Shown here piece after piece: positions 39,727 through 64,000 of a DNA stretch of 64,000 bases. Numbering within the stretch: the stretch's first letter is position 1; the number at the start of each line of letters is the position of its first letter. Both the position numbers and the translations under genes were made by a program. The stretch is taken from the IMG/VR virus record IMGVR_UViG_3300020392_000005. One strand, 5' to 3'. This stretch comes from a virus. Under the pieces are notes generated by a model, which saw nothing but the letters and a program-made list of their open reading frames with translations, was not told the origin of the DNA and did not search any database.

Positions 39727-39748
39727 ATCTTTTTCCTACTTTGTTAAA

Positions 39749-40138
39749 TTAGAATCCAAGATTACTTAAAAATGTAGCCTTGGCAGCCTTATGGTCAGCG
39801 ATTGCTGTTTTTGTTGCAGAAGTGTCATCTGCTACATCAGCAAGTAAGTCAACCATTGACTTGTCTTCCATAAATTTTCTGTCTAAATCTTCTAAGCCTT
39901 GTTTTACATAGCTAGAAGAAGCTTTTAATGACGCTTTTTCGTCAGCGTCTGAAACAACTGAAACACCGTAAACGCTATCGTTTTCGCCATCAGTCTTAAT
40001 AGTTGTATTGCCGTCATCAATTGAGAAGTAAGCTTTACCTTCTAGTTCTCCTAAACTGATTGGCGTATCACCTGTTGGCTGCACATAGTCGTCACCGTGA
40101 GGTACTCCAGCAGTCATTGAAAATATTACTTTTGCCAT
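39749..40138 (-). CDS. hypothetical protein (possible fibre chaperone)
   Basis: Lies between RCC1 proteins; TATAAATA at 40178-40185. Confidence 0.55.
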   Translation of the reverse strand: MAKVIFSMTAGVPHGDDYVQPTGDTPISLGELEGKAYFSIDDGNTTIKTDGENDSVYGVSVVSDADEKASLKASSSYVKQGLEDLDRKFMEDKSMVDLLADVADDTSATKTAIADHKAAKATFLSNLGF

Positions 40139-40185
40139 TGTTTTTTTCTCCGTTAGTTTATTAAATTACTTTCCTTATATTTATA

Positions 40186-44310: not shown

Positions 44311-44344
44311 TTTAGTTCCCTATCTTTGTTTAACTATTTATTAA

Positions 44345-47300
44345 TTATCCTAATACCGCAGGTTGGAATAATGATGAATAATCACTATCATTTTGTTGCT
44401 GTATGTAGCTTCCACCATATCCAACGATTAAGTATCTATTATCAAAAGTTTTTATTTCTCTAAAGTGATATCTGTTACCATCTTGCGAATAATAACCTCT
44501 ACCTCTTATATCTTCTACTCTTCCGTGTGCAAAGTTCGGCATACGAACCATTTGGAAGTAGTAATCATCTGTCTCTTCAATACCGTTGGAAGCGTTTCTA
44601 TCTCCAACATATTGAGTAGAATATCCTACTGAACAAGTTCCGTAGTTATTTCTACCTGCCATAAACACGAATCCGTCATATGTTAATAAGTGTACTGAAC
44701 AATGCCATTGGTTACCATATGCAGATTGACATCCAATATCTTTAATGTTCATAACATCTTGCGTTGTAGTTGATGTTGTACCTGTATTAACTTGCCATTT
44801 AGGCGATACAGCAGAAGATTGATTAGTTGTGTTACCAAGTCCTAATTCATATGCACCATTGTAACCAGCACATTTGATTTTACCTTCTTGGTCTTTAGTC
44901 CAGAAACTTGCGTATCTGCCGTTTCCAGTAAACCACATATTAGTTGCGTGTGAGTGAGTTCCACTTCCAGGTCCGTTACCTACCTGTGTAAATGTGTTAA
45001 CATCTGAAGTATTACCCATCATCGCCCAACCGTATTCGTTTCTTCCAGACCAGAATATCTTACCTTTTTCAGTTAAGATTGCAACTCTTTGATATGATTC
45101 CTGACTATCTACTAGTAATTTTTTAATCTTACCAGGATTAGAAGCACCATTGTCAAAGGTTACACCAGTTATTTCAGTTGGTACTGATAAGTTAGTTGTA
45201 TTACCTTGTGCTAAAACTCCGTATCCATTGTAACCCCAACTATAAAGTTTTCCGGTTACATCTAAAGCGAAACAGAAACCGTAGCTTCCGCCAGCAGTCC
45301 AGAAAGCGTCAATCTTATTACCATTGAAATATGAAGTCTTATTAATTTTTGTTGGTCTACTTAAATCAGAAGTGTTGTTTTGTCCTAATTGACCATAACC
45401 ATTGTAACCCCAAGCCCATAGTTCGCCATCTGTATCTAAACCATAGACGCTATGAGTATTAGTTCCGTTACCATTACCACCCCAATTAGTAATATAAATT
45501 CTTTTCATCCTTGTATCTTTTAATGTGTGTGTTGAAGTATTACTTGCTTGATATACTTCTTGGTATGTACCACCACATCTTACTGGATATCCTCTGTTTG
45601 AAGTAGCAGCGTCACCATTTTGTCCGTGACCTCCGTAACCCCAATGGTATATTTCACCATTATTAAATAGTGCCATACCTGTTTCATATCCAGATAATAG
45701 TTGAATTGCTTTTGGTGGTTCTCCGTCAGGAGTTGTATGAATACCAGAACCACCGTTATCTGTACTTCTATACCAATCGTTGAATGGGAATGTCATTCCT
45801 ACTCCAGTTAGTACAGAACCTTGGTTAATTCCGTTTTGACCATTTGAGTTTGAACCCCAACTTGTAATACCACCACGACCATTAATGAAACACGGCCAGT
45901 CAACACATTGACCTTGTTGGAATTGTCCAGGCAATCTGTATAGTGGGTGGTCATCTCCGATAGGACCACTTGTATTACATAGAGACATACACTCTAAACG
46001 GTTACCAGAAAATCTGTTTTGATAACCTCTAACTTTTTTAGCAGTTGAAGCAACATCAAAGGTTACATTAGCAGAAGAGTAGAATACTTGACCATCTATT
46101 CTTAATTGGTCATTAACAGCATTGTTCTCACCACCAAGTTTAGGACCTTCTTCGTGTCCTTCCCATCTGTTTGAATTTTCTCTATCTATTCCGTCTGTCA
46201 TTGAAGCTTTTTGGTCAGTCGCTAATTCTATTTGTAATGCACCCCAAGTACCGATACTATTAACTCTAAATGTAAAGTTAGGAGCACCACCGCCACCTAA
46301 ATCAGCGTCAGCGATTGTAATAACTTCGTTTTGTGCATATCCAAGACCACCCATTTGACCACCAAGATTTTTCTTGGTTACGGTTACAGAAGATACTGAA
46401 CCGTCTTCTTCTACGATTAAGTCAAAGGTTGCGTTTGAACCAGCACCTGAAGTTGCAGTTTGGGTTACATTTCTGTAAATACCAGGTTTTCTTAAATAGT
46501 GTGCGTTGCTAAAATTGTCAACCGTTTTAACTGATTGGTAACCTTCAACGGTTACATTGAACATAGGTGTATTGAATCCACCAGTTCTACCAGCATTTGA
46601 GTTCTCAGCAGCTGCGGTAACATTTGTACAATTTACATAAGGATAGAATCCTTGTTGTCTTGCAGGAGAAGCAGCAGAAATATTTGTGATTGTTTCAACA
46701 GCACCATTGTCTACAACTATCTCATCATCAAATTGCATTTCTTCTGATACTCTTTCCCAATACTTGTTTCCGTCTGTATCAGCTTCTTGGTCCCAAGGTA
46801 AGTATTTACTAGTACCGTCTGTCGTATGTTCTAGTATACAAATATAAGTTGCTCTTACTTTGTTGATTTGGTTTCCAGAATACTGATTGTTTGTTGAGAA
46901 GTCATTATCTAATTCTACATTTACTTTGACAATATCATTAGGATAGTATGTTAAGTATGAACCACTTTCATTTGTATTGTCGTGTAAACCTCTATACTTA
47001 AATGAGCTTCTTACTAGTTTCCAAACTGGTTGGTCGGCAACAACAATTTTAGGACCCCAATTTGCAGTAGGATTATCATATGAGAAGAGATATAATTCTT
47101 TAGGTGTTTCGTTAGTAATTTCTATTCTGATTTCTCTTTTAGTAGCGTTATTGTAAGTAGATGTATTAAAGTAATCACCACTTGCAGTACCACCACCAAC
47201 AGCCTTACCATCTAAAAAGTAGGTTACATCTTGGTGGTAAAGGTTAGTATTTTTGTTAGAGGCACTATTAGCGAAAGCAGGTTTGTTATCATCAAAATCG

Positions 47301-47605
47301 TTTCCGTCGTGTGATAAGATTAGTGTATCACCAATCATTACTTGCTCTTCTGCTAATGGCCAAGTTGCTTGACCGTCCCATTTGTAAGCGTCTGAACCTG
47401 TACTTGCAGATACAGCTTTCGTCAACCTTACATATCTTCTTTTGTTCTCTTTAGGAACATCATTTGTGGAATCTGTATTCTTAACGCAGATATAATCAGA
47501 ATTATTGTACATAACCACATCATCACGGATATAAGTTTCTGTACTCTTCCAATCACCTCTAAAATTAAAGAACAGATTTCCTATTTTAGTTTTAGTTGTT
47601 GCCAT
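44345..47605 (-). CDS. large tail-fibre/adhesin with C-terminal RCC1 propeller
   Basis: LWAWGYNGYGQLG, LYSWGYNGYGVLA repeats; N-terminal FRGDW module. Confidence 0.75.
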   Translation of the reverse strand: MATTKTKIGNLFFNFRGDWKSTETYIRDDVVMYNNSDYICVKNTDSTNDVPKENKRRYVRLTKAVSASTGSDAYKWDGQATWPLAEEQVMIGDTLILSHDGNDFDDNKPAFANSASNKNTNLYHQDVTYFLDGKAVGGGTASGDYFNTSTYNNATKREIRIEITNETPKELYLFSYDNPTANWGPKIVVADQPVWKLVRSSFKYRGLHDNTNESGSYLTYYPNDIVKVNVELDNDFSTNNQYSGNQINKVRATYICILEHTTDGTSKYLPWDQEADTDGNKYWERVSEEMQFDDEIVVDNGAVETITNISAASPARQQGFYPYVNCTNVTAAAENSNAGRTGGFNTPMFNVTVEGYQSVKTVDNFSNAHYLRKPGIYRNVTQTATSGAGSNATFDLIVEEDGSVSSVTVTKKNLGGQMGGLGYAQNEVITIADADLGGGGAPNFTFRVNSIGTWGALQIELATDQKASMTDGIDRENSNRWEGHEEGPKLGGENNAVNDQLRIDGQVFYSSANVTFDVASTAKKVRGYQNRFSGNRLECMSLCNTSGPIGDDHPLYRLPGQFQQGQCVDWPCFINGRGGITSWGSNSNGQNGINQGSVLTGVGMTFPFNDWYRSTDNGGSGIHTTPDGEPPKAIQLLSGYETGMALFNNGEIYHWGYGGHGQNGDAATSNRGYPVRCGGTYQEVYQASNTSTHTLKDTRMKRIYITNWGGNGNGTNTHSVYGLDTDGELWAWGYNGYGQLGQNNTSDLSRPTKINKTSYFNGNKIDAFWTAGGSYGFCFALDVTGKLYSWGYNGYGVLAQGNTTNLSVPTEITGVTFDNGASNPGKIKKLLVDSQESYQRVAILTEKGKIFWSGRNEYGWAMMGNTSDVNTFTQVGNGPGSGTHSHATNMWFTGNGRYASFWTKDQEGKIKCAGYNGAYELGLGNTTNQSSAVSPKWQVNTGTTSTTTQDVMNIKDIGCQSAYGNQWHCSVHLLTYDGFVFMAGRNNYGTCSVGYSTQYVGDRNASNGIEETDDYYFQMVRMPNFAHGRVEDIRGRGYYSQDGNRYHFREIKTFDNRYLIVGYGGSYIQQQNDSDYSSLFQPAVLG

Positions 47606-47631
47606 TGTTTTCTCTTCCTAATTTATACTAT

Positions 47632-50600
47632 TTATGTTGTTTCTATTACTAGGTCACCAGCCTTGTCTAAATTAATTTGCATAGTTCCGCTGATAACTTC
47701 AAATCCTTCGGCAGCATCCGTTCCGTCAAAGAAAGCACTTTCCTTCTGTATTAATTCATTAGCATTAGTGATAATTCTTCTCTTCAATGCTAAGTCATCA
47801 TCATCAATTGAAAGTGTTTGTAATGTCGGTGTACCTTGGTCATCTACATATTTTTTAGTTGCAAGGTCTTGAGCCGCTGTTGGTGAAATACTTGACGACA
47901 TTTGAGTTTGTGCAGTCAAAGTAATAATACCATTATTTTGTGTTCCTATATTCAAGTTAACATCTGTACCACTTACACCTGTTGTAGATATAGTTTGTGC
48001 AGTTGCCGTAATTGAACCTGCTGTCAATGAGTTAACTGAAAGGTCGTTTTGACCTCCACCAAGTTGACTATCAACATAAGTCTTAATAGCTCTTTCGGTT
48101 ACAAGAGCAGTATCAGAATTATCTGCTAATGTTCCGTCAGTACTAAATTCATTAATTGTAGCACCAAAGTTACCTTGAGCATTAGAACCTAACGAGATTT
48201 CTTGTAATCCAGAAAGGTCAAACGCTTCGGCGTTCAATGTTGCTTTACCAGTAGCCTGTTCAACTTTAAATAAGTTACCTACTCTAAAGTTACCATCTTG
48301 GTCAGTTGAAGAGTAGAATACTCTACCTCTATCAGTTTCTAATACTTCGTCATTAGGGTCTGGTAATTGTGATGGAGTGTTAGGATAATTAGTAGTTGAG
48401 AAACCACCAGTACCTACATCCAAGAAGTCGTGTCCAGTTAATCTGATATTTGAGTAATTACTTCTTAATGTTGCAGTCTCGCCGTGTGTAGGTGCATTTG
48501 AAGTAGTAAACACAGGATTTACTCTAACTAATCCTGCACCACTTGAATAACCTGATACTGATACAACATAGTAAGCTTGTCCAGATATACCAGCAAACTC
48601 TACAATGTCACCACCAGTTGGCGATTTACTTAATCCTGTTAATCTTACAAACGCTGTTCCAGCAGCTGAGATTTCAGCGTAACCATCTCCAGTAATAGTA
48701 GCAGTAGTTGTTTCTGTTTTATATCCAGAACCAGCAGTTGTTACCGTTGTTTGAGATATTACACCATTACCTATAGCAGAAGTTGCTGTTGCAACACTAG
48801 AAGCATTAGGGTCTGTAATTGTAACCGTTGGTGCAGAAGAATAACCAGCACCACCGTCTAATATTAAAATTTTTGAAACTTGTTGATTTTCTACAACTGC
48901 TCTTGCGAGTGCGTTTCTACTAGGAGAACCACCACCAGTTATAGCAACTCTAGGTTCAATTTCATAACCTGAAGATGTATCAAAAGATGTTGCAGGTGAT
49001 AATCCAGAGTTTACAAATACATCAAATCCAGCAGTACCATTTTCTTTTTGTACCGTTGCAGTTTTTGTAGAAGCAACATAGTCAGCGATAATACCTGTAT
49101 TACCGTAACCTTGTCCTGTGTAAATTGTAATTCTCATTCCGTTATAGAAATCATCTGGTTGACTATCAGAAGCAGCAAGTTTAATTGTACTTGAAGTTCC
49201 TGATTGTGCGAATCCAGAAGTTGTAAAGTGAGTTGAACCGTTATTGGTTACTTCAATATATTTAACGGCACCGTTTGCAAAAGAGGCAGAAGCAGCACCA
49301 GAGGCACCAGAACCTGCAATTGATATACTTGCATTAGTGTATGCTTCCCCAGCGTATTCAAATTCAAGTCTTGCGATTCCTGAACCAGATACTAATACTC
49401 TTCCTACTCTAGCTTCGTTGTTTTGTAAATCTACCGTTCCAGTATAAGGCGTTTCGTTTGCGTCAATACCGTTTGCAGTAGAACCATATTCACCATAAGA
49501 GTTGTTTGAGTTTAGTGAACGAATAACAGCACCACTATCACATAGATAACCGTGGTGTGCGTAATAAGTGAATACAGATACTAATTCTGATTTTGCATTT
49601 GCAAGTGCCCAAACACCGACACCACCGTCAGATATTTGAGTAAAGTCGTTTGCAAGAATTGAACGGTTACCAGCATTGTGCAATGAACCGTCAATCTTAA
49701 TACCAACTGAACCACTTCCAAAGTGTGAGCAGTTTTGTATAAATGGTGATTTACTTGTAATGTGAACAGAAGTGTCACCAACACCAGTTCCTGGGTCAAG
49801 TGCGAATACTACGCCTGAACGAGTTGCACCGTCAGCAGTATTTGGTCTTTGAACACCATAAGTGTCAGCACTTCCCATAGTACCTTGCATACCAGAGAAA
49901 GTGAAACCAGAGAAGGTTACACCGTTTCTAACTCTAAACATATCTGCTCTTGCGTTAGGTGTGTTTGTTAATCCAGTTGCTAATGAGTTTCCTGAAGCAG
50001 GTTTAACTACAGCACTTCTTAAACCATCACCAATAACTTGCGTGTTTGCACCAACAACTATCGGTAATGCTTCTTCGTATTCACCAGTTTTTACATATAA
50101 AGTTTTTTGTAGATTAGCGGCAACATTTGTATTCATCCAATTTAATGCGTATGCAATTGTTAACCAAGGTTTGTCTAGTGAAGTTCCTCTTCCTGTATCA
50201 GAAGCTGGGTCGTTATCAGCACCGTGTTTAGCAACGAAATAAGTATTTTGCGTTACCCCAGCGATACCCCAACTTACATCTGTACCATCTGATTGTAAAA
50301 CTGAACCAGAAGTACCGATACCTAATCTAATATTTTGTGTAGCGTTTCTTGTTAATAGGTCACCTCTTGTAGTGGTTACGAAATTGGAATCACCTTCGGC
50401 AATCAAATCCCAGTAAACACCGCCTGTATCATAGTCAGGTCTTTTTGCGTCACCTTGTACGGCAGAAGAAGTGTGAGCAAGTTTACATCTATAAGAAGAT
50501 GAACCATAACCTATTGCGTCTCCTGGAGCATATTCAGTTGCGTCTGCCCAACTATCTCTCCAGTTAAATCCTTCGTTTAGTTTATCCCAACTTGCAGTTG

Positions 50601-51354
50601 TTGTTGGAACAACTCCTGTTGCGTCTTGTTTTGCAACATATGTGTGACCACCATATCTAACAACATCTCCAGTTTTGTATGCAGTAGAACCGGCATATGT
50701 TCCTACCATTTTGAAACCAGTAGTTAATACTTCCCAGTATGTTGCGTTGTTGTAAGGTGTTTGTCCTGTTGATTGTTGAACAGCGACATAGTTATAACCT
50801 CCGTAGGTTACAACATCACCTGCTTGATAAGCAGTAGCACTATTATAACTATCTTCAAATTCTAATCCAGAAACGAATACATTAAATTTAGCAGTATCTA
50901 TTGTAGAAGCGGCAGTATGTTCTACGGTACAGATATAAACATTTGCACCATATTTTGCTAAATCGTTAACTTTGTATGCTGTTCCTGAAGAATAAGTTCC
51001 TGTCCAGTTAAATCCTGGAACGAAACTAGTCCATTTTGAAGTGTCGTCATATAAATCTGATTGTGAAGTGTGGGCAGTATTACAAACAAAAGTTGAACCT
51101 CCCCATTGTACAACATCATCTACTTTGTAGTATGTTGTTGTTTGCCAAGCGCCTTTCCATTCTTGTCCGGCACTCATCTTTTTCCATTTTGTTGTTGAAA
51201 GGTCAGCTTCAAAAGTTGCTGAACCTGTATGGTTTGCCATTGCGACAAACGAATTACCACCATATCTTACGACATCATCTTTGATATAAGCGGTACCTGT
51301 AACCCAATCCCCTTTAAAGTGAAATTTAAGTCTACCTAAAATAAAATCTGCCAT
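47632..51354 (-). CDS. tail-fibre protein with N-terminal tandem CBM5/12-like repeats
   Basis: About six W.G.W...T.Y...DVV.YGG..Y repeats; beta-helix-like middle; GAGYSSAPTVTI-type repeats. Confidence 0.75.
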   Translation of the reverse strand: MADFILGRLKFHFKGDWVTGTAYIKDDVVRYGGNSFVAMANHTGSATFEADLSTTKWKKMSAGQEWKGAWQTTTYYKVDDVVQWGGSTFVCNTAHTSQSDLYDDTSKWTSFVPGFNWTGTYSSGTAYKVNDLAKYGANVYICTVEHTAASTIDTAKFNVFVSGLEFEDSYNSATAYQAGDVVTYGGYNYVAVQQSTGQTPYNNATYWEVLTTGFKMVGTYAGSTAYKTGDVVRYGGHTYVAKQDATGVVPTTTASWDKLNEGFNWRDSWADATEYAPGDAIGYGSSSYRCKLAHTSSAVQGDAKRPDYDTGGVYWDLIAEGDSNFVTTTRGDLLTRNATQNIRLGIGTSGSVLQSDGTDVSWGIAGVTQNTYFVAKHGADNDPASDTGRGTSLDKPWLTIAYALNWMNTNVAANLQKTLYVKTGEYEEALPIVVGANTQVIGDGLRSAVVKPASGNSLATGLTNTPNARADMFRVRNGVTFSGFTFSGMQGTMGSADTYGVQRPNTADGATRSGVVFALDPGTGVGDTSVHITSKSPFIQNCSHFGSGSVGIKIDGSLHNAGNRSILANDFTQISDGGVGVWALANAKSELVSVFTYYAHHGYLCDSGAVIRSLNSNNSYGEYGSTANGIDANETPYTGTVDLQNNEARVGRVLVSGSGIARLEFEYAGEAYTNASISIAGSGASGAASASFANGAVKYIEVTNNGSTHFTTSGFAQSGTSSTIKLAASDSQPDDFYNGMRITIYTGQGYGNTGIIADYVASTKTATVQKENGTAGFDVFVNSGLSPATSFDTSSGYEIEPRVAITGGGSPSRNALARAVVENQQVSKILILDGGAGYSSAPTVTITDPNASSVATATSAIGNGVISQTTVTTAGSGYKTETTTATITGDGYAEISAAGTAFVRLTGLSKSPTGGDIVEFAGISGQAYYVVSVSGYSSGAGLVRVNPVFTTSNAPTHGETATLRSNYSNIRLTGHDFLDVGTGGFSTTNYPNTPSQLPDPNDEVLETDRGRVFYSSTDQDGNFRVGNLFKVEQATGKATLNAEAFDLSGLQEISLGSNAQGNFGATINEFSTDGTLADNSDTALVTERAIKTYVDSQLGGGQNDLSVNSLTAGSITATAQTISTTGVSGTDVNLNIGTQNNGIITLTAQTQMSSSISPTAAQDLATKKYVDDQGTPTLQTLSIDDDDLALKRRIITNANELIQKESAFFDGTDAAEGFEVISGTMQINLDKAGDLVIETT

Positions 51355-55056: not shown

Positions 55057-55284
55057 CTATTCTTTTGGTGTATCTTTGGTATCTTCTTTAGGAGCGTTTG
55101 GGTCTATTCCCAAGAACTCACAGATTTTCGCATTGTAATATCTGATAAGCACTTGAACTTTTTCCATTTCAATCTCCAATCTCGCCTGATTTTGAACAAG
55201 TTCCTGTCTTGCGATAACATAGTTTTTAGTCTTGTCATCAAACTTATTCTCATCATACTCTTTACCATTAATCTTAATTGCCAT
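55057..55284 (-). CDS. small coiled-coil protein
   Basis: IKINGKEYD followed by a coiled coil; TATAAATA at 55306-55313. Confidence 0.6.
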   Translation of the reverse strand: MAIKINGKEYDENKFDDKTKNYVIARQELVQNQARLEIEMEKVQVLIRYYNAKICEFLGIDPNAPKEDTKDTPKE

Positions 55285-55723
55285 AATTTTCTCCTGTTAT
55301 AGTATTATTTATATTAATTCCAGTATCGTACTTTATTTCTTTTTCATAATATCCACGAATATCTGGTATCATACCACTATTCTCATCTTTAGGGTATGCT
55401 GATATTATCTTGTTATATATGTGTGGTGTTTTATCATACACCTCAAAGTAATCGTCATTGCCATATAATAACATTGGGTCATTTAACAACTCATAAAAGT
55501 TGTCACCATAATCTCTCTCAATCCACTTCGCATAGCATATCGCTACACAATAACTCTTTGCTGGGTATACGAACCTGTCAACTTTTTCGTTCCAATGTCG
55601 TATTGCCCAATCTACAATATCGTCTTCTTTCCATATCAAAGATATCTCTTTGTCTGCTAGAGTATCTTTATGAGTAGTGTTTAGTCTATGGTAGACTTCT
55701 TGTTTGAGTTTCCATTCCTTCAT
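55274..55723 (-). CDS. hypothetical protein, last gene of the radical SAM operon
   Basis: YPAKSYCVAICYAKW; overlaps the upstream gene. Confidence 0.65.
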   Translation of the reverse strand: MKEWKLKQEVYHRLNTTHKDTLADKEISLIWKEDDIVDWAIRHWNEKVDRFVYPAKSYCVAICYAKWIERDYGDNFYELLNDPMLLYGNDDYFEVYDKTPHIYNKIISAYPKDENSGMIPDIRGYYEKEIKYDTGININNTITGENYGN

Positions 55724-56480
55724 AACTTATATACTCCACATTTTTGCAATCGTCCCAAGCGTTGATTTTTAAATTTAAATAATTCTCTCTATTGACTTTG
55801 TAAAACTTAATCCAGTTATACCACTTAAATAGTCTTCGCCACTCATATATCCACTTATTGATATTATAGTCTGAAATATGAGTATCACTTTTATAGAATT
55901 TTTGACCTCTATAAATGTTGTTAAATTGTTTGTCAATACTAAAGAAGTCGTGTCCTATGAGATAGACTTCTTTTAATTCTGATACTTCTTTACACGCAAC
56001 ATAACCACTTGTCGTTCCTGTACCCCACTCAACTTGTTCGTGTTCTCTATAAATGTCTGTCAAGTTTTTTACTTTGTCTTCTGTACACCAACTTAATGAT
56101 ACTTCTGTTTGATTAGTTTCTTTGTCTTTATATCCGTGTACAACAAATTCTTTAGAACCTTGTCTTTGATTTTCTATTAATAGTCCGTCTCGTCTTATAG
56201 TTTTTATATCTCTATGTTCAGGAAACATACCTTGTATCATCATATCAAAATTCTGTACAGGTATCGTAACCCAATCTCTAAAATAACAATTTGCAGTATA
56301 ACAATAACCACTTCTGTATATTTCGTGCATAATAGGATGGTCAGTTGCAACTAATATGTCAGGTGCAAAATCTTTATAGAGATTATTACAACCTATTATA
56401 ACGCCTCTACCTTTGAGAGACTTTAGATTGAAACCTCTTCTACTTCTACCATTACCTATACAAAATGCTCTATTAGACAT
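55686..56480 (-). CDS. hypothetical protein with DUF115/MptE/sialyltransferase-like Rossmannoid start
   Basis: AFCIGNGRSR, IIGCNNLY, GTGTTSG, VYLIGHD. Confidence 0.5.
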   Translation of the reverse strand: MSNRAFCIGNGRSRRGFNLKSLKGRGVIIGCNNLYKDFAPDILVATDHPIMHEIYRSGYCYTANCYFRDWVTIPVQNFDMMIQGMFPEHRDIKTIRRDGLLIENQRQGSKEFVVHGYKDKETNQTEVSLSWCTEDKVKNLTDIYREHEQVEWGTGTTSGYVACKEVSELKEVYLIGHDFFSIDKQFNNIYRGQKFYKSDTHISDYNINKWIYEWRRLFKWYNWIKFYKVNRENYLNLKINAWDDCKNVEYISYEGMETQTRSLP

Positions 56481-57474
56481 TAATCAATCTCTCTTTACCA
56501 TATCTAAACTTGTAAGTATCTAATAGATACTTGTAACCATTACAACCATTTTCTAAATTTTCAACAAATCTATAATGTTCAGTTAAACAGAAACCTTTGT
56601 ATTCACACTTATTACATATAGGCGATTTATCTATCTTTTGTTTTTCTTCTTCTGTCCACTTTATATAATCTTCAAAGTTATCTACTTTTCTAAAATACTC
56701 TTTATCATCTTTGTCAAAGTCTAATACTGCTAACTCTCCTGAAGGTGTAATATATAAGTGGTCATCTGAATATGCGTTATAAGATTTATCTAAACTATCT
56801 AATATATTTAATTCATTAACAAAAGTAAAATCTTCTATTCTTTCGTCTGTATCATACTTTGTCATAAAGGCAGGATATTGAGCACATAACTCTAAAATAT
56901 AATCTTCAAATTGTGCGTCTGTTACCGTATAATTGTTTGCCTGATTTTTACTATAAGGTTTTACTTCAACACTTTTAAATCTTTTATTTCTATGTTTTAG
57001 TTTTCTGAAATTTTCCCAGAAGTGAGCACTACCTACTTCTTTTAATACTTGTTCATTTGCTAATACAAGAACAGAAAAATCAACAGGCAACTTTGTCATA
57101 TTCTCAAATACTTTCATATGGTCTTGTCTTGCAGTAAAATCATAACTAACACTTAAATAATAATCAGGATTAAAAAATATAGGATTCATTGTAGACAAGT
57201 TAGTATTAATATTAATCTTATCTTTGTAATAAAATCTAATAGTATTAGTAATCGCTTCTAATTTATCTTTCTTAATTATACCTATCTCGCCACCATATAA
57301 GTCAATATGGTTTATATCTCTATAAGTTTGTATATGTGCAAGTATATCATTTAACTTGAAATGGTCTATTGTCTTCGTATCACCTAATTGTTTAGGTGTA
57401 AGATAACACCAAGGACATCTAAAATTACAATGATAACTAGGATTGATAGATAAATTAATCTTCGGCAATGTCAT
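56473..57474 (-). CDS. radical SAM enzyme with partial SPASM-like domain
   Basis: CNFRCPWC, YGGE; C-terminal CNKCEYKGFC...GC. Confidence 0.88.
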   Translation of the reverse strand: MTLPKINLSINPSYHCNFRCPWCYLTPKQLGDTKTIDHFKLNDILAHIQTYRDINHIDLYGGEIGIIKKDKLEAITNTIRFYYKDKININTNLSTMNPIFFNPDYYLSVSYDFTARQDHMKVFENMTKLPVDFSVLVLANEQVLKEVGSAHFWENFRKLKHRNKRFKSVEVKPYSKNQANNYTVTDAQFEDYILELCAQYPAFMTKYDTDERIEDFTFVNELNILDSLDKSYNAYSDDHLYITPSGELAVLDFDKDDKEYFRKVDNFEDYIKWTEEEKQKIDKSPICNKCEYKGFCLTEHYRFVENLENGCNGYKYLLDTYKFRYGKERLINV

Positions 57475-58027
57475 ATTCAAGTTCCTCAATTATATTTAAA
57501 ATCTTTCTTTTACTATATCTGAATAAAATTAATCTTTTAATATGTGACCATATATTATTATCTTTAAATAAACCGAAATATAAAAAACTATACGCAGTAT
57601 GATTTCTCATAAACAATCTATTCAATTCATTATATTCTGCTTCTCTCTCCATAGGTTGTTCAACTCTAACACCTATTTGACCATTAACATTTGCCACTTG
57701 TTCTTTTACTTTAAAAAATATACCAGGTACATCTTTTAGTTTTTGTATTACATCAAAAATTCTTTCTATTCTATTCTTGCCTGGTACAGCAATCATAACA
57801 TACCAGTTTAGATAGTGTTTGTTTCCGTAATGACCTTCACAACTTGATAGAGGTAGATAACCTTTTCTAACAAGTGCTTTACAATGTTGTAATACACCAG
57901 GTTCTACTTCGTTATCATACTCTTTGTCAAACGGACTTACTGATAAGGCATAGTAACCATTTGAGTAATCTAAATCTTGTTTTTCTGAGGCGTGTATTCT
58001 GCCATTAGGAAATAATTTATTCTTCAT
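57455..58027 (-). CDS. hypothetical protein with TYW3-like SSCEGH motif
   Basis: EPGVLQHCKALVRKGYLPLSSCEGH. Confidence 0.5.
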   Translation of the reverse strand: MKNKLFPNGRIHASEKQDLDYSNGYYALSVSPFDKEYDNEVEPGVLQHCKALVRKGYLPLSSCEGHYGNKHYLNWYVMIAVPGKNRIERIFDVIQKLKDVPGIFFKVKEQVANVNGQIGVRVEQPMEREAEYNELNRLFMRNHTAYSFLYFGLFKDNNIWSHIKRLILFRYSKRKILNIIEELEYDIAED

Positions 58028-58542
58028 ATATTAAAATCAAAACACCCGACTATTCTATCTTCTTTACCAGGTACACTTTTCCAATCACTTACTTTGTGTT
58101 GCCAAGTCTCTTTGTGATTTAAGATAATCATATCACCTTTACCTGGGTGCAACATACAAGACAATTCGTTAGTCTCTTTATTTCTAACTGATATTGAACC
58201 GCCTTGTTCTCTATTACTAGAATTTGTAAAGTACATTAATATAGCAAGGTTCGCTCCTTCTTTCAAATCATTGTGCCAATTAGTTGATGGATTATCAACA
58301 CCATTGACTATTTCAGGTTGACCGTATAGATTATACTTACCTGATATTAGTTTAATATATTTATCACCCAAATAATTATGGGTTATTTTAAGTGCGTTGT
58401 CTACTTCTTTCGTGTGAATACAAACTTTATATTCTCCTTGTTGTTTAAAAGGTATCTCAACACCTTCAAAAAATCTAAATGCAACAGGATCCTTAAAAGG
58501 ATATACACCATTAATTAATACATTTTCTATACCTTGTATCAT
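58024..58542 (-). CDS. 2OG-Fe(II) oxygenase
   Basis: WHND, GGSI, WQHKV, RIVGCF. Confidence 0.75.
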   Translation of the reverse strand: MIQGIENVLINGVYPFKDPVAFRFFEGVEIPFKQQGEYKVCIHTKEVDNALKITHNYLGDKYIKLISGKYNLYGQPEIVNGVDNPSTNWHNDLKEGANLAILMYFTNSSNREQGGSISVRNKETNELSCMLHPGKGDMIILNHKETWQHKVSDWKSVPGKEDRIVGCFDFNI

Positions 58543-58985
58543 CTTCTAACAAACCTCCACTTAATTGCAAGTCTAGTCTCATCACCATAATAAGGATTTG
58601 CTCTATGCCTTAAATGTGATGGCATTATAAACAATGCGTTCTTCTCAAATCTATGTTTCTTCTTACCTTCTATCTGTAATTCTCCACCTTTTGTACTATC
58701 ACCTTTTAAATATAGTATTGCAGTAATCTCATTATTCTTATCGCTATCTGTATGATAACCTATTATATTCTTATTCTCGTCTTTAGTGTTTGTAGAGATA
58801 ATATATCTGACAATCAAAGGACCTAAATCAGGATAATTTAAACGACATATTGTATCTGTCCATTCAAAATTATCATCTAACTTCGTGTGTATATTCTTTT
58901 CATATAACGGCAGGTCTAACTTATTAATTGCGTTTAATAAAGTATTACCTTCTGTCATAGTTAAGACATTACGCTTGATTAACAT
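58539..58985 (-). CDS. 2OG-Fe(II) oxygenase
   Basis: YHTD, KGGEL, LRHRANP, RLAIKW. Confidence 0.8.
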   Translation of the reverse strand: MLIKRNVLTMTEGNTLLNAINKLDLPLYEKNIHTKLDDNFEWTDTICRLNYPDLGPLIVRYIISTNTKDENKNIIGYHTDSDKNNEITAILYLKGDSTKGGELQIEGKKKHRFEKNALFIMPSHLRHRANPYYGDETRLAIKWRFVRR

Positions 58986-60075
58986 TTTTTATCTCATTTT
59001 CATAAGGCGTCATTTTGATATAATGCAAACCATTTGCATTTAATATATCTTCACCATTTCTTTTCATCTTTTGACAATGTGCCTCTACAACTCCTTTTTC
59101 TTTGTAATCTTTTATTGTTTTTCTACACCCATTACAAATACTAAACATAGGACAACCATAACAACTCTTTTTCATAGTTGTTAATTTTAAATCATCTTGC
59201 AAAGGTGTAAAAAACTCACCTTGCATTTCTCTTTCAAAATCTATCTCTTTATCTTTATCATCACCGAAAGCACCACAACTATAATAGTCGCCATCTGGTT
59301 GTAAACATCTTATACCCTCATCACACTTTCTACTTAACGGACAACTCGTATGTTCAGTCTTAATTGTTGTCATCATTTGTTTTGTATTGAACTCCCAAGG
59401 TGAAAGTCCCATACGCCAGATATCAACATATATCTTATATATGTCTGATAATAAAAATGGATTTTTCTGTTCACCACTTGCCATTGCATAGTTTAGTTTA
59501 CACTCAACACCTGTTTTCTCATAACGCCAGAAGTTATGTAAAGTGCCTTCAGGTTCATTATTGTTTGACATCTGTTTTGCAAGTCTAACATTTTTGATTG
59601 CGTTGTGTACATTTTCTTCTGTAATAACTGATATAAAGTCAGGTCTATAACCACAATATTCTAACATTGCGTCTGAACACTTCCAAAAGTCTTCTTCTGT
59701 AAATTCTGTAAAGTCACCTTTCAATCTACCACCACCATATTGAAAAGAAGTTGTGATACCTACTCTATCATTATTAAATAAGTCAACCCAACGACCTGGT
59801 TTCTTATAGAAAGGCCATAAGTTTGTTGTAAGTGCAAGTGAAGTATCGTAACCTTTATTATCTAACCATTCAATAATCTTCCAGTAGTAATCAGGTGCCA
59901 TCATCAATGGGTCACCACCATTTACGATAATAGTTTTTGTTTCAGGAAACCTTTCTAAAAAACGAAATATCTGGTCGTGTTTTAACCAGTTTTTCTTTTC
60001 ATTAGTCAATTGTGTACTTGAACAAAAAGTACATTTGAAATTACACAATTCAGTAGGTTTTATTATTAGGTCCAT
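58969..60075 (-). CDS. radical SAM/SPASM enzyme
   Basis: IIKPTELCNFKCTFC, NGGDP; CPLSRKC...PDGDYYSC...CYGCPMFSICNGC...HC. Confidence 0.92.
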   Translation of the reverse strand: MDLIIKPTELCNFKCTFCSSTQLTNEKKNWLKHDQIFRFLERFPETKTIIVNGGDPLMMAPDYYWKIIEWLDNKGYDTSLALTTNLWPFYKKPGRWVDLFNNDRVGITTSFQYGGGRLKGDFTEFTEEDFWKCSDAMLEYCGYRPDFISVITEENVHNAIKNVRLAKQMSNNNEPEGTLHNFWRYEKTGVECKLNYAMASGEQKNPFLLSDIYKIYVDIWRMGLSPWEFNTKQMMTTIKTEHTSCPLSRKCDEGIRCLQPDGDYYSCGAFGDDKDKEIDFEREMQGEFFTPLQDDLKLTTMKKSCYGCPMFSICNGCRKTIKDYKEKGVVEAHCQKMKRNGEDILNANGLHYIKMTPYENEIKNVNQA

Positions 60076-60686
60076 AATCCTATCCAGTTTAATCCTGTTT
60101 GACTTTCTTTGTTTCTAATCCAGTAATCACCACTATCATCTTTCTTAAAACCAAATTGTGTCATAATTTGATAGTGATATGGTTCTTTTTGTGCAGACAT
60201 CTGGTTCATTGTTAGATGTACATAATCAAAATATGTTCCACTAGGACATATAATATCTTTATCTTTAAATAAGTTTATTGTTTCACACCACATTGTTCTT
60301 AATAATCTTCTTCTATATGTTGCGTCTTTTCTTTTCATATATCCTGCATACTTCATAGACCCACATATGATATGGTCTTTGTAAATATGAAACATACCTA
60401 CACCTTTAATAAATGTATTAGGCGTTTTAGGTTGTACCCATTGTTTCTCGCCTATTGTTTGTTGTGCAACATTATATAATTCTATGTCTTCTTCTTTCGT
60501 ACCTAACCACAAAAGAAAGTGTGCTTGTCTTTCACACAATCTAGGCATATAAGGTTTCTGTACAGGAAATCTATCTAGTTGTACTTCTATATTCTCTGGT
60601 AAATTGAGATTATTAGGTTGCAACAAGATTTCGTTGTACTCGTACATCTTCAATATATCTGTGCGTAAGTTTGTATACACACTCAT
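60066..60686 (-). CDS. hypothetical protein (possible GNAT-like fold; start may be 60647)
   Basis: Lies between two rSAM genes; KGVGMF...RRLLR...QFGFKK pattern. Confidence 0.55.
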   Translation of the reverse strand: MSVYTNLRTDILKMYEYNEILLQPNNLNLPENIEVQLDRFPVQKPYMPRLCERQAHFLLWLGTKEEDIELYNVAQQTIGEKQWVQPKTPNTFIKGVGMFHIYKDHIICGSMKYAGYMKRKDATYRRRLLRTMWCETINLFKDKDIICPSGTYFDYVHLTMNQMSAQKEPYHYQIMTQFGFKKDDSGDYWIRNKESQTGLNWIGLWT

Positions 60687-61665
60687 TGAGTTCCTCCTTA
60701 TATCTGTAATCGTGGTTCATAAAACAACCTAGTGTACATCTATCTAAAAATTCACAACTAGCACAATTATATTTTTCTAAAAAACTATTTTCTATTCTAC
60801 TATTATCTTTTCTTTTTATTGGCGACTTATATTGACTTAATGATTTTTCATCTTGTACTAGATTACCACATTGACATAAAGTACCATCTGCTAATATAAG
60901 TTTTGATACTCTACAACTTGCAAAGTTTTTCTTATTGAAAATCCAATCTCTAACAGGATGTACATTAGGATATTTGTCTATACAATGTTTGAAAAATTTT
61001 AATAGTAATTCATCGCTAGGCATATTGTATTTTGCGTGTTCATCTGGCATATAATAATCAAAGTAGATATACTTACCACTCTTATAGAGATAGTCAAAGT
61101 ATTCATCGCCTTGTTCTAAATAATATGTGATATTAGGTTTTGTAAGTAGACAAGAAAAACAGGTTACTTCATCACCCCAATATTCTACATTTGATTTAAA
61201 TATCTCAAAATCTTTTTTATTAAATCTACCTCGTGGGTCATAACTAGTTGTTAATCTAGTTTCAATACCTTCTTGCCTAGACCAAGTTATTAAATCTAGT
61301 ATCTGTTCATTACCTTGAGGTGTGGTTACTAAATTAGATACCCAATTAATTACACATTTCTTATTGTAATGGTCACATATCTTTTGTATACCTTTTACAA
61401 AAAGTTTATAACCTTCATTTAATTTCTTTGTGTAGATTGCAGGTGCAAAGACTTCGCCACCCATAACATTAAAGGTAACTTTTTGCATTAACTCTTTTGA
61501 TATAAACTTCTCTACTGACGGAAGTTTATCTAATACATTTTCAGTACCGATAGTGTCTTCGTGGTTTTGCCAACAGAAAGCACAACGCAAATTACAAAAT
61601 TCAAATAAATGAATAGTGTACTCTTGCTCTGGGTCTCTTTTTGGGTCTAATAAAAACTCTCGCAT
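60613..61665 (-). CDS. radical SAM/SPASM enzyme
   Basis: CNLRCAFC, MGGE; SCR...ADGTLCQC...CASCEFLDRCTLGC...EC. Confidence 0.92.
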   Translation of the reverse strand: MREFLLDPKRDPEQEYTIHLFEFCNLRCAFCWQNHEDTIGTENVLDKLPSVEKFISKELMQKVTFNVMGGEVFAPAIYTKKLNEGYKLFVKGIQKICDHYNKKCVINWVSNLVTTPQGNEQILDLITWSRQEGIETRLTTSYDPRGRFNKKDFEIFKSNVEYWGDEVTCFSCLLTKPNITYYLEQGDEYFDYLYKSGKYIYFDYYMPDEHAKYNMPSDELLLKFFKHCIDKYPNVHPVRDWIFNKKNFASCRVSKLILADGTLCQCGNLVQDEKSLSQYKSPIKRKDNSRIENSFLEKYNCASCEFLDRCTLGCFMNHDYRYKEELNECVYKLTHRYIEDVRVQRNLVAT

Positions 61666-61673
61666 TTAAACTC

Positions 61674-62786
61674 CTACGAGTTTGCGAATAGTCTATACTT
61701 TCCTAAAGTGTCTGTATCGTCTGATTTTTTTAATGAGAATAGATATTGTAAAAAAGAATAGTTAATATTACCTATATCAAATCTCGGTATGTACGATAGA
61801 CTAGATGGACTATTCACCGTCTCGGTTATGATTGTGTCAAAATCTGATTTAGAAAGAGTTGACTTAACTGCCTTGTCTAAATGGTTCATAAAGTAATCAG
61901 GACTAGGTGAATTTTGAAAGTCGTATAGGTCTTTGACTAATTCTTTTAGTGCAGTTTGTTTTTCACTTGACAAATTATCAATATTCATTATGTTGACAGC
62001 ACCATTGTTTGCAGTAGGTTTCTCTACAAATACTTCACTATCAGCGAAAGGTGCTAAAGGTGTAATGCCTTCAAAGACATTATCAGCATTTAAGTTGACA
62101 TCATCAGCAGTATAACCTAATGCTTCTTGTTGATTAGTATTTAACAGATTGAGAGCTGCACCCTCTCTAGCGTCTGTAAATACTTCTTTGTAAAATCTTT
62201 TTAAGAATTTTAAATATGTGTCTAATAATTTATCTTCGTGTGTATCGGCACCTGCAAAGTATTCGCCTAATAATAATTCTATTGATAAATTTAAATCCCA
62301 CTCTTTGATAGTATCTAAATCTAAAGCACCTTGTACTCTAAAGTAACCTTTAACATCTCCTAGACCAGAATTTAATTGTGTCAAATCTAAAGTATGTGTA
62401 GGTTGCAATTGTGTATTTGCAATAATCTTTTCGTGGTGTAAATAGATATCTACATATTTTTGTATTGCGTCTTCGTCAGCGAAAGGCAACATAGTCTTTA
62501 ACCATATAGTTACCAACTCTAAAAATGCCTGACTATCACAATATATAATAATCTTACCTAGAGAATTACTTTTTAATCTTACATCATTAAAGAAACCTAT
62601 CATACCATTAAACTTCGTTTTCATTTCGTTAACGCTATGAGTATGATTAATTAATGTACCACGATAAGTTGTTTGTAGCTCTTGGTGCATTGCATTGCCT
62701 TTATCAGCAGATATAACATATCTGTTAGTATGACAATCAATACTATCGTCAAAAGTCATATAAACTTTATTAAACAGGTGTAGCAT
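61674..62786 (-). CDS. hypothetical protein in the radical SAM operon
   Basis: 370-aa ORF; overlaps the upstream gene. Confidence 0.7.
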   Translation of the reverse strand: MLHLFNKVYMTFDDSIDCHTNRYVISADKGNAMHQELQTTYRGTLINHTHSVNEMKTKFNGMIGFFNDVRLKSNSLGKIIIYCDSQAFLELVTIWLKTMLPFADEDAIQKYVDIYLHHEKIIANTQLQPTHTLDLTQLNSGLGDVKGYFRVQGALDLDTIKEWDLNLSIELLLGEYFAGADTHEDKLLDTYLKFLKRFYKEVFTDAREGAALNLLNTNQQEALGYTADDVNLNADNVFEGITPLAPFADSEVFVEKPTANNGAVNIMNIDNLSSEKQTALKELVKDLYDFQNSPSPDYFMNHLDKAVKSTLSKSDFDTIITETVNSPSSLSYIPRFDIGNINYSFLQYLFSLKKSDDTDTLGKYRLFANS

Positions 62787-63462
62787 TTAGTACCTCTAAA
62801 TCTTTTGTTCTTGCTTCTTTGTATTTCTTACTATCAAATTTACCTTCGGCAATCGCCCAAGTCATTAGAAACATAGGGTTTTCTTTAACACCCCAAAAGT
62901 CTAATAGACATTTGCCTTTAAACATATATTCTTTAAAGTATTTAGTATAGTTTTTAACAATTTTTTCTTCTGGTTTATTATAGTAGAAATAAAAATCTTT
63001 GTGTTTTAATAGACTAACAAAGTTGATACCTTTAGTATCTTCTGTTTCGTCTTTAGGATATAGGTCAACATATTCTTTAAATGCACCTTCTCCTACGATA
63101 GACATATTGTATAGTGGTAAACTTTCTAATTTACTTGCCCACTTATCAATAGTCTCTAAATTTTCTGATATAAATTTTGCGTTCTTAATTTCTTTTACTA
63201 GACCTTTATGTTCAAATAGAACAATCATAGCAGCCTTTTCTAGTAATGGTATGTTTACTAACATAGAACTCTCAAAATATTCTTTTAGTAATTCATCATC
63301 ATAATTAGATAGGTCGCAAGGTATATCTAAATTACTTAAATATGTTAAGAACTGAGCACCTTTTAATGTACTCTTTTCGTAATCAATCATATAACTTTGT
63401 GTTTTATCTTCAAAGTATTTTTTTAAATCTTTCAATTCAATAGGTACAATAGTTTCAATCAT
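62770..63462 (-). CDS. hypothetical protein in the radical SAM operon
   Basis: Start at MIETIVPIE, TAATG-coupled to the stop of the CHxS-tail gene. Confidence 0.7.
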   Translation of the reverse strand: MIETIVPIELKDLKKYFEDKTQSYMIDYEKSTLKGAQFLTYLSNLDIPCDLSNYDDELLKEYFESSMLVNIPLLEKAAMIVLFEHKGLVKEIKNAKFISENLETIDKWASKLESLPLYNMSIVGEGAFKEYVDLYPKDETEDTKGINFVSLLKHKDFYFYYNKPEEKIVKNYTKYFKEYMFKGKCLLDFWGVKENPMFLMTWAIAEGKFDSKKYKEARTKDLEVLNATPV

Positions 63463-64000
63463 TATCTTCTTCCTCTGGATCCGTGGCACGAACCGTGGCA
63501 CGAACTATGACAAATTGTTTTTGATAGTGTGTAAGTATTTCCTCTTTCAACACCATAAGCACTTGCAAGAGAACTTAAAAAGTTTTCTAAATTACTATCG
63601 TCAATTACTTGACCTGCTTGTAAATTACTAGGTTGTGATGGGTTTAAGGTTACTCTTTGACTAGTTGTTAAGTGTGCGATTTCTGTTTGATTATATTGAG
63701 TACCTGCACCTGTCATTGATACAAACGCATTAGTACTCTTAATATTAGTATAGTTGTTCATTTCAGCTTTTAAAACACTATAAATTGTATTCGCTTGAAT
63801 TAATTGTGCTGAACTACCTAGATTATTACCATTAATAGAAATAGTAACCGCTGATACTTCTGTCATTGTAGATACTGAACCAGTCGCACCTGAATTACTA
63901 CCTGTTAATATATCGTTTTGAACAAAGTTAGTTTGTCCTGAACCTGGTACTACATTTCTTACTTTTAATACATTGTTTGAATAACTAACAACGGTACCTA
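63462..64000 (-). CDS. virion-type protein (5'-truncated) with C-terminal CHSSCHGSCHGSRGRR tail; candidate radical SAM substrate
   Basis: Frame stays open to the window end (GTVVSYSNNVLKVRNVVPGSGQTNFVQNDILTGSNSGATGSVSTM...), so the 134-aa call is only the C-terminal part. Confidence 0.75.
   Translation of the reverse strand, partial: GTVVSYSNNVLKVRNVVPGSGQTNFVQNDILTGSNSGATGSVSTMTEVSAVTISINGNNLGSSAQLIQANTIYSVLKAEMNNYTNIKSTNAFVSMTGAGTQYNQTEIAHLTTSQRVTLNPSQPSNLQAGQVIDDSNLENFLSSLASAYGVERGNTYTLSKTICHSSCHGSCHGSRGRR

Follow-up and report, generated by a model that had tools for sequence, protein, structure and literature searches.

What does a bacteriophage do with a row of radical S-adenosylmethionine (rSAM) enzymes encoded next to a protein that ends in repeated Cys-His-x-Ser units? 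The question is raised by a 64,000-nucleotide stretch of viral DNA (IMG/VR record IMGVR_UViG_3300020392_000005; the whole stretch is referred to as the window), in which a cluster of genes on the minus strand, at 55274-64000, encodes such a tailed protein, three rSAM enzymes, two 2-oxoglutarate (2OG)-Fe(II) oxygenases and six proteins of no assigned function. A preliminary description of the sequence had proposed that the phage applies the chemistry of peptides that are made ribosomally and modified post-translationally (RiPPs) to the C-terminus of a structural protein. With moderate confidence, we favor a RiPP-like maturation in which the rSAM enzymes, the oxygenases and their helpers modify the C-H-x-S units of a late, particle-associated protein linked to the fibre or baseplate. 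As judged from gene content, phages and Bdellovibrio-like predatory bacteria probably both modify this tail chemically.

The tail is conserved as a peptide and carried by dissimilar proteins

The tailed protein, 178 residues of which lie within the window, ends in TICHSSCHGSCHGSRGRR followed by the stop codon. Its last 16 residues, CHSSCHGSCHGSRGRR, conform to the consensus (Cys-His-x-Ser)x3-Arg-x-Arg-Arg, which stands at the extreme C-terminus. A degenerate DNA pattern for (CHxS)3-RxRR-stop retrieved at least 119 viral contigs with at least 150 tailed open reading frames (ORFs). Across 142 distinct coding sequences of the tail, the Cys, His, Ser and three Arg residues are fixed and synonymous codons vary freely, Ser being drawn from both the AGY and TCN families and Cys from TGT and TGC at about 1:1. 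Fixed residues combined with free codon variation point to selection on the tail peptide, and the free variation further argues against a match by chance. Natural variants, such as N replacing the Ser of a repeat, and R-N-R-R, were found in a set of loci fetched by rSAM homology instead of by the motif. The x position is occupied by small residues (S, A, T, G, N) and never by Pro. The tail contains no acidic residue and no Lys, and its Arg residues are confined to the end. Three repeat units are typical, and two Bacteriovoracia loci, L134 and L139, have four; a varying repeat number is typical of a modified core and not of a docking tag.

The body of the window protein has no Cys outside the tail, and the tail cysteines are the only ones in 107 of 148 tailed proteins. 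A single-type body family of about 190 aa (tail removed) includes the window protein, which has an insertion of about 70 aa, and is weakly joined by gp170 of the Agrobacterium phage Atu_ph07 (body profile E 1e-8). The profile of this family, made with the last 16 residues removed, misses the paired-type bodies of about 130 aa, for which hhalign matched 45 pre-tail columns with 55% probability. The tail also stands behind a Pfam Gly_rich_2 (PF21722) domain in a few metagenomic proteins of 461-494 aa; this domain is N-terminal in P0122 and more central or C-terminal in P0124 and P0125. By these comparisons, the tail and a short pre-tail segment are a portable module on apparently unrelated bodies, suggesting that the enzymes track the tail and not the body. 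Pfam found neither a peptidoglycan-binding domain nor a sulfatase domain in the tailed protein; a search of Atlas features returned only its own viral cluster, and a profile search of the PDB gave only chance-level rows.

Tail and enzymes occur together in phages and in bacterial predators

Locus counts given out of 121 refer to the loci among the pattern matches listed. In iterated profile searches, the rSAM family was found in 91 of the 121 loci and u243, whose gene directly follows that of the tailed protein, in 103, in line with the co-occurrence that the preliminary description had expected from a search for the tail. Most loci lacking u243 or an rSAM gene are cut short by the end of the locus or contig. 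Contigs with two tandem tailed proteins of about 130 aa often have no rSAM gene within 5-8 kb. Five such paired-tail contigs were searched whole: four have 3-5 genes of phrog_1802, the family matched by the rSAMs of the window, elsewhere, whereas the sequence of the fifth stops just short of that position.

In the reverse direction, we fetched 80 loci by homology to rSAM-B, the second rSAM enzyme of the window, alone. Fifty-one of them had the full 10 kb upstream, and a tailed ORF was present in 49. For the other two, L220 has one 1 kb beyond the locus and L233, a 57-kb fragment, has none. Wide occurrence of the rSAM genes without the tail, which would have undercut the original proposal, was thus not seen, and the link between tail and enzymes is, at the level of sequence, near-perfect in both directions across phage lineages and Bdellovibrionota.

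When 50,697 records of cultured phages were searched by tblastn, rSAM-B and u243 matched the same 15 records, all of them jumbo phages (Atu_ph07, Phosso, RSL2, RSF1, FLC6, FLC8, three FLC4 phages, RsoM3USA, SURPRISE13 and pPa_SNUABM_DT01, some duplicated). Several of these carriers (Atu_ph07, RSL2/RSF1, FLC6/8, SURPRISE13 and pPa_SNUABM_DT01) are genetically tractable and grow on plant-associated laboratory hosts. The kit is found in T4-like marine phages, in phiKZ-like Ralstonia/Burkholderia phages, in the Rak2-like Agrobacterium phage Atu_ph07 and in Bdellovibrionota. Megablast of the cassette region and tblastn of the window-type and paired-type tail proteins gave no match among the cultured phages. 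The phiKZ-like Ralstonia phages RP12 and RP31 have an rSAM cluster of their own, comprising a 537-aa rSAM protein, an 'arylsulfatase regulator' Fe-S oxidoreductase and MoaA-like and MgoB-like proteins (PMC5468394); we rejected it as an instance of this cassette because its genes are different and match neither rSAM-B nor u243.

The same DNA pattern occurs at 25 places in species-representative genomes, 12 of which are Bdellovibrionota metagenome-assembled genomes (MAGs). Three matches in high-GC bacterial DNA (L123, L138, L142) have no matching ORF and were dismissed as chance. Most Bdellovibrionota loci, whose contigs reach 1.29 Mb in length, encode the tail protein, u243 and several rSAM enzymes, and in many of them the accessory protein u370 and oxygenases are encoded as well. 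A search of five kit-bearing genomes (four labelled Bdellovibrionota and one unclassified MAG) gave no support for the idea that these copies derive from a prophage or a contractile injection system: we found no sheath protein (PF04984) and a single weak terminase match on another contig. In the two genomes whose flanks were inspected, the cassette is accompanied by a fibre protein with a Peptidase_S74 chaperone. In the Pseudobdellovibrio MAG G009 (L245:3597-4643, L244:284-5798), this S74 fibre protein carries a prepilin N-methylation motif and is encoded beside pilM and a PilQ-type secretin; in the Halobacteriovoraceae MAG G007 (L242:7765-8991), the S74-chaperone fibre protein, an Mrp/NUBPL Fe-S P-loop NTPase and an SLT transglycosylase adjoin the cassette. 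Fibre genes are a common neighbor of the cassette in phages and predators.

Phage-type cassettes also occur on short contigs of marine MAGs, namely L125 (MAG 'Rickettsiales bacterium MED606', 32.5-kb contig), L124, L128, L133, L145 and L146, and include the 259-aa tail type of the window. Such contigs probably belong to phages, either assigned to those hosts in error or infecting them, and hence give only a weak hint about the host of this phage lineage.

Four divergent radical SAM enzymes resemble peptide and protein maturases

The three rSAM enzymes of the window are paralogous; they have CxxxCxxC motifs at residues 24-31, 11-18 and 21-28 and all match phrog_1802 (E 1e-30 to 7e-54). Against PF04055 (cut-off 29.5 bits), rSAM-B (rsB) scored 31.0 bits, and rSAM-C (rsC) and rSAM-A (rsA) fell below the cut-off with 23.2 and 20.6. 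Motif and core match together place all three in the radical SAM superfamily, as first described. Over all loci, the rSAM proteins form four orthologous groups (rs0, rsA, rsB and rsC) that are about 20-27% identical to each other. Each fully covered locus, including those of Atu_ph07 and RSL2, encodes one orthologue of each group, which points to four non-redundant steps. The most conserved, rsB, has a mean column identity of 63% across distant phages.

Beyond CxxxCxxC, the number of invariant Cys is 8 in rs0, 7 in rsA, 8 in rsB and 4 in rsC. In the rsA alignment, C23/27/30, C250, 265, 300, 303, 309 and 313 are invariant and 328 is conserved in at least 90% of sequences; in rsC, the invariant positions are C16/20/23, C287, 290, 296 and 311. 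The preliminary description had labelled two enzymes as SPASM proteins. This label is supported for rsA and rsB by their 7-8 C-terminal Cys and not by the SPASM hidden Markov model (HMM) TIGR04085, which scored the window enzymes at 21.4 and 22.6 bits, under its cut-off of 27; the rs0 of a relative, at 29.9, lies above it. With only 4 auxiliary Cys, rsC is not a full SPASM protein.

Profile searches against the PDB aligned rsB with the anaerobic sulfatase-maturating enzyme anSME (4k36; residues 2-321 versus 5-354, E 8e-7), every Cys of the auxiliary clusters being matched, and rsC with the peptide epimerase YydG (8ai1, E 6e-8), followed by SuiB. The rs0 profile matched 8VPO, CteB, anSME (full length) and ChlB, and rsA had no match at E<=1e-3. 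The best NCBIfam match of rs0 is the ranthipeptide maturase PapB (full length, 42.2 bits). The other full-length NCBIfam matches are nearly all RiPP or protein maturases, and those to MoaA, viperin and NrdG mostly cover the generic rSAM core only. On the strength of these profiles, the nearest characterized relatives are peptide or protein maturases (anSME, PapB, CteB, YydG) and not nucleotide or cofactor enzymes, so that the clustering with nucleotide- or cofactor-modifying families that would have spoken against tail modification did not appear. Their scores lie far below the curated family cut-offs, and the enzymes are best classified as putative new families of the SPASM class, not as members of a named one. 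They start 10-30 residues before CxxxCxxC, which leaves no room for an N-terminal RiPP recognition element (RRE).

The two 2OG-Fe(II) oxygenases were recovered as described, with PF13640 scores of 30.0 and 26.8 bits and HxD...H motifs; the family of the second occurs in 38 related loci and in bacterial cassettes.

A distant homologue of the tailed protein is found in virions

The virion proteome of Atu_ph07 includes gp170 with 8 unique peptides and 35% coverage (PMC6102473, Table S5). This is the tailed protein of that phage (L001:4983-5873), since the mass calculated for it, 31.89 kDa, is identical to the tabulated one. The products of neighboring genes, gp165, 168, 169 and 171 (enzymes and the u243 homologue), are absent from the same proteome (PMC6102473, Table S5). 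From this one distant homologue, we infer that the tailed protein of the window also resides in the virion.

The protein was most abundant in gel band 1, where proteins of 90-140 kDa peak; the other 30-36-kDa proteins mostly peaked in bands 6-8, and a few lower in the gel, and the other small proteins peaking in band 1 had 1-2 peptides only (PMC6102473). The published sample buffer lists no reductant (PMC6102473), and gp170 has no Cys beyond the three of its tail, so the shift could stem from a very stable oligomer or from a covalent link, disulfide or other. We regard this anomaly as a lead, not as a result.

A model of tail modification and its alternatives

In the mechanism that we propose, the cassette, located among the late genes, would modify the last 16 residues of a folded protein of 180-260 aa, which would then be incorporated into the particle, probably together with the apparatus of the fibre or baseplate. 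The four anciently diverged enzymes rs0, rsA, rsB and rsC would act on the repeated C-H-x-S units. Three of them are predicted to hold two auxiliary Fe-S clusters (SPASM) and one a single cluster; none would have an N-terminal recognition domain, as is the case for anSME. The PapB- and anSME-like members would carry out Cys-centered reactions, yielding thioether cross-links or oxidized Cys, the YydG-like rsC perhaps an epimerization, and a cupin protein and prolyl 4-hydroxylase (P4H)-type 2OG oxygenases would add hydroxylations. The accessory proteins u243, u370 and u149 may be dedicated helpers and could still supply the roles of an RRE or peptidase. That the tail is the substrate, what chemistry it undergoes and what the modified tail does are all inferred from this arrangement.

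Several points weigh against this mechanism. Co-occurrence cannot separate a substrate from a partner in the same pathway, and the residue invariance across the 142 tail sequences is partly imposed by fetching and filtering on the motif. Matches to characterized rSAM families are far under the curated cut-offs (30-42 bits versus 268-349), and the Asp that directly follows the third aligned Cys in anSME, which we take to be its catalytic base, is replaced by Gly in rsB. No peptidase, RRE or exporter was identified in the cassette. Between gp170 and the window-type protein, the BLASTP alignment is confined to the final 52 residues, the bodies being related at the profile E-value given above. Finally, a mass shift or modified residue is on record nowhere. 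The rSAM/SPASM chemistry originally proposed for the C-terminal tail is supported in part, by co-occurrence, by the maturase relatives and by the Atu_ph07 homologue in virions, and not by the curated thresholds.

The tail might instead be a docking tag, a C-terminal 'follower' that recruits the enzymes to modify the body or neighboring fibre proteins, which we consider unlikely. Recognition must come from elsewhere if the rSAM enzymes have no recognition domains, the roughly 45 pre-tail residues are kept between otherwise unrelated bodies, and fibre genes always adjoin the cassette, all of which would suit a tag. A tag does not need a tandem repeat, however, and its repeat number (3 or 4) should not vary; bodies so unlike each other would not share a site of modification, and Cys, His and Ser are typical reactive residues of a core.

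Also improbable is a Cys3His3 metal, Fe-S or disulfide element that would staple a multimeric fibre protein or serve as a cluster or electron donor for rSAM enzymes with another substrate. This would leave unexplained the strict co-occurrence of four SPASM-class enzymes, oxygenases and three proteins of no assigned function with the tail. Moreover, an enzyme helper is not expected in virions without the enzymes, and neither the invariant Ser nor the RxRR end is needed to bind metal. These objections stand against the facts that Cys and His are classical metal ligands, that the tail Cys are usually the only ones, and that the presence of gp170 (32 kDa) in the top gel band, in a buffer without reductant, fits multimers stabilized by disulfides or metal.

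We give still less credence to a released peptide, in which the tail would be cut off after modification to act as a small RiPP or cofactor in host manipulation, the body being its carrier. MftC and PqqE do combine a C-terminal core with SPASM-class enzymes, and the unassigned proteins of the cassette could include a peptidase, but Pfam, NCBIfam and PHROG detected no peptidase or exporter family among them, the carrier is a conserved folded protein present in virions, and the genes lie in the late structural block and neighbor fibre genes in organisms as unrelated as phages and predatory bacteria.

Nucleotide, DNA or small-molecule chemistry with the tailed protein as a mere syntenic neighbor is very improbable: phages reportedly use rSAM enzymes in DNA hypermodification, the RSL2 cluster is interleaved with a dihydrofolate reductase gene and there are weak N-terminal matches to MoaA and viperin, yet these matches are mostly to the generic core, the full-length ones are nearly all to protein or peptide maturases, and the two-way link with the tail holds across T4-like, phiKZ-like and Rak2-like phages and Bdellovibrionota.

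Relation to known systems

Tail modification would have its closest counterpart in the antiphage system HXS, in which the His-Xaa-Ser repeats of HxsA are served by the rSAM enzymes HxsB and HxsC and by HxsD, and activity at the cell envelope depends on a +8 Da modification on SHRSS (Li et al., Nat Commun 2026, PMC13128918). Both systems pair a protein-sized substrate (in the cassette, a candidate one) that carries tandem basic H-x-S repeats with at least two rSAM enzymes and a small helper whose fold is unknown. Unlike HXS, the cassette has a C-H-x-S unit with an invariant Cys at the extreme C-terminus followed by RxRR, four rSAM classes and oxygenases, and its carrier belongs to the attacker and would be associated with the virion or fibre, whereas HXS uses a periplasmic defence effector. 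The Hxs models (TIGR03978, TIGR03977) matched only the N-terminal core, at 32.2 bits against a cut-off of 370 for HxsB and 30.5 against 267.9 for HxsC, and the tailed protein and u243 do not qualify as an HxsA-type repeat protein and an HxsD partner.

Like anSME (PDB 4K36-4K39, TIGR03942), with which rsB and rs0 align end to end with the auxiliary-cluster Cys in register, the enzymes are minimal rSAM/SPASM proteins without a recognition domain, and they would act on a full-size protein that keeps the modified residue. They differ from it in being four and not one, in the absence of a sulfatase domain from the tailed protein and in the residue at +2, which is G, S, T, N or A and never Pro. TIGR03942 scored rs0 at 29.8 bits against a cut-off of 349, and rsC at 14.5. 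The last repeat and its following Arg, C-H-x-S-R, resemble the sulfatase motif C-x-P-S-R.

PapB, which acts on CX3D repeats, and CteB (PDB 5WGG) are likewise SPASM enzymes, and form one thioether per short tandem Cys-containing repeat. In contrast, the tail offers no acidic acceptor at i+4, the candidate substrate is a folded protein, and there is neither a leader peptide nor an RRE; the PapB model NF047865 gave 42.2 bits against a cut-off of 340, and the tail has no C-x3-D/E repeats. In the comparison with Hxs and SPASM models advocated in the preliminary description, the SPASM model recognized the rs0 of a relative (29.9 bits, cut-off 27), and the thresholds for Hxs, anSME and PapB were all missed. 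The cassette also departs from a canonical RiPP pathway, as its precursor would be a conserved protein of 180-300 aa and neither an N-terminal RRE nor a peptidase family was found. In other systems, QhpD, a SPASM rSAM enzyme, cross-links Cys in QhpC, a polypeptide retained in a larger assembly, and MftC and PqqE modify the C-terminal cores of MftA and PqqA. The motifs and accessory genes of the cassette differ from those of QhpD/QhpC and MftC/MftA, and we know of no viral precedent for QhpD- or MftC-type systems.

Virion proteins are matured by proteolysis, isopeptide cross-links, glycosylation and metal binding. In full-text searches, we found no paper on radical-SAM chemistry of a virion protein and none describing the cassette, whose genes are merely listed in phage genome papers; a comparative study of jumbo phages (PMC7824862) does not mention it.

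More tentatively, the shared kit might make a covalently cross-linked or reactive Cys-His-Ser tail of a fibre-associated protein that is used where phage or predator contacts the Gram-negative envelope, a possibility we would not put on a level with tail modification itself. The modified tail could staple the protein covalently to a partner in the fibre or baseplate, or could serve adsorption or penetration as a warhead or metal site. If this is so, no virus particle was previously known to undergo radical-SAM maturation, and viruses and bacterial predators would have an 'attack chemistry' in common. The cassette costs a phage 9-14 kb, and its retention across unrelated phages and predatory bacteria suggests that it must matter for infection. 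It may be the offensive counterpart of the HXS defence, which blocks DNA entry through related repeat chemistry, and it would provide four new SPASM-class enzymes with a defined candidate substrate of 16 residues.

Layout of the cassette in the window

The minus-strand cluster exists at 55274-64000 as listed in the preliminary description, except that it comprises twelve genes, not eleven (the description itself names twelve). They are translationally coupled, with overlaps of 1-74 nt or a gap of 8 nt, and are transcribed in the order tailed protein, u243, u370, rSAM-A, u206, rSAM-B, two PF13640 oxygenases, u190, rSAM-C, u264 and u149:

63462..64000 (-), tailed protein, C-terminal 178 codons, with its 5' end beyond the window (open ORF 63462-63998)
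63512-63465 (-), stop at 63464-63462, 16-codon tail encoding CHSSCHGSCHGSRGRR (from the translation)
62770..63501 (-), u243 (phrog_20767), core accessory protein; probable ATG at 63462, with a 1-nt overlap with the stop of the tail gene
61674..62786 (-), u370, frequent accessory protein (62/121 loci)
60613..61665 (-), rSAM-A (rsA), with a 7-Cys SPASM-type C-terminus (PF04055, phrog_1802)
60066..60686 (-), u206, lineage-restricted accessory protein (20/121 loci); no Pfam, NCBIfam or PHROG match
58969..60075 (-), rSAM-B (rsB), with the full 8-Cys SPASM set; most conserved enzyme of the cassette, anSME-like over its whole length
58539..58985 (-), 2OG-Fe(II) oxygenase 1 (P4H-type); PF13640 30.0 bits (cut-off 27), HTD...H
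58024..58542 (-), 2OG-Fe(II) oxygenase 2; PF13640 26.8 bits (just under the cut-off of 27), HND...H
57455..58027 (-), u190; a 13-bit helix-turn-helix match only, 2/121 loci
56473..57489 (-), rSAM-C (rsC), with one auxiliary-cluster Cys set, CxxCx5C...C (invariant Cys pattern)
55686..56480 (-), u264 (phrog_30607, function unknown), the protein called Rossmannoid in the preliminary description, lineage-restricted; GNGxS...D motif, 3/121 loci
55274..55723 (-), u149 (phrog_20737), conserved small partner of rSAM-C (20 loci by phmmer)

The cassette is truncated by the end of the window, which contains its larger, downstream part; the missing part is its upstream side. In L080, a syntenic relative whose rSAM-B is 93% identical, the tailed protein has 257 aa, and the genes for a Cupin_2 protein and for the fourth rSAM enzyme, rs0, lie just upstream. 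In most single-tail loci, including those of Atu_ph07 and RSL2, an rSAM gene ends at most about 30 nt from the start of the tail ORF.

Among the accessory proteins, u243 forms 533 clusters in a set of 5.8 billion proteins, all unnamed and without Pfam assignment. Its AlphaFold model is of high confidence (pLDDT 89.5), and no recognizable fold emerged from Foldseek against the PDB, a wide VIA-align search or the ESM Atlas (best Z 4.3 on a 55-residue beta-alpha unit, template modelling score <=0.33). No long fusions of u243 were found in a search for them, and neither u243 nor the tail protein had an NCBIfam match at E<=0.1. The model of u370 (pLDDT 91.8) has a helical C-terminal domain and an N-terminal domain resembling protein tyrosine phosphatases (PTPs) and dual-specificity phosphatases, residues 1-165 aligning with about 30 PTP-fold chains at VIA-align Z 7.2-5.0. 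It lacks the Cx5R motif, its only near-invariant residues are D83 and E169, and Foldseek and an Atlas feature search returned nothing. PDB profile searches with u243 and u370 gave chance-level rows only. In L069:10912-12276, u149 (residues 321-446) is fused to the C-terminus of an rSAM-C orthologue (PF04055 at 16-101) in a protein of 454 aa, a Rosetta-stone arrangement that ties u149 to rSAM-C. The TYW3-like label first given to the protein at 57455-58027 (u190) received no support, as no Pfam or NCBIfam match to that family was found at E<=0.1; only a short SSCEGH string recalls the TYW3 motif.

The window represents the late structural region of a marine T4-like myovirus of low GC content (about 30-39%), with every gene on the minus strand. 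Its products include the major head protein, the sheath and the large terminase, along with a group of fibre proteins of very large size that contain CBM5/12 and RCC1-propeller domains. Genes of fibre or baseplate type follow directly downstream of the cassette. The T4-type late-promoter motif TATAAATA occurs 10 times in the window (18192-55313, -), a total that is not above chance; all copies are on the coding strand and mostly just 5' of late genes, a bias and placement that fit T4-type late promoters. None lies between 55314 and the end of the window, the nearest being at 55306-55313 (-), after the cassette, which leaves the 12 genes without a late promoter of this type inside the cluster. 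In close relatives, one copy of TATAAATA stands about 180 nt upstream of the tail gene, which is weak evidence as they are closely related to one another.

At 37522-51354, the window encodes four fibre-like proteins of 734-1374 aa with CBM5/12 modules and RCC1-like beta-propellers, which PHROGs label 'regulator of chromosome condensation' and which are likely receptor-binding proteins. In L080, an additional gene for a 369-aa protein with a weak Radical_SAM match (L080:7377-8486, E 0.006) lies between the oxygenase and rSAM-B genes and is absent from the window, and the position of u190 in the window has no counterpart in L080; accessory content turns over quickly even at about 90% identity.

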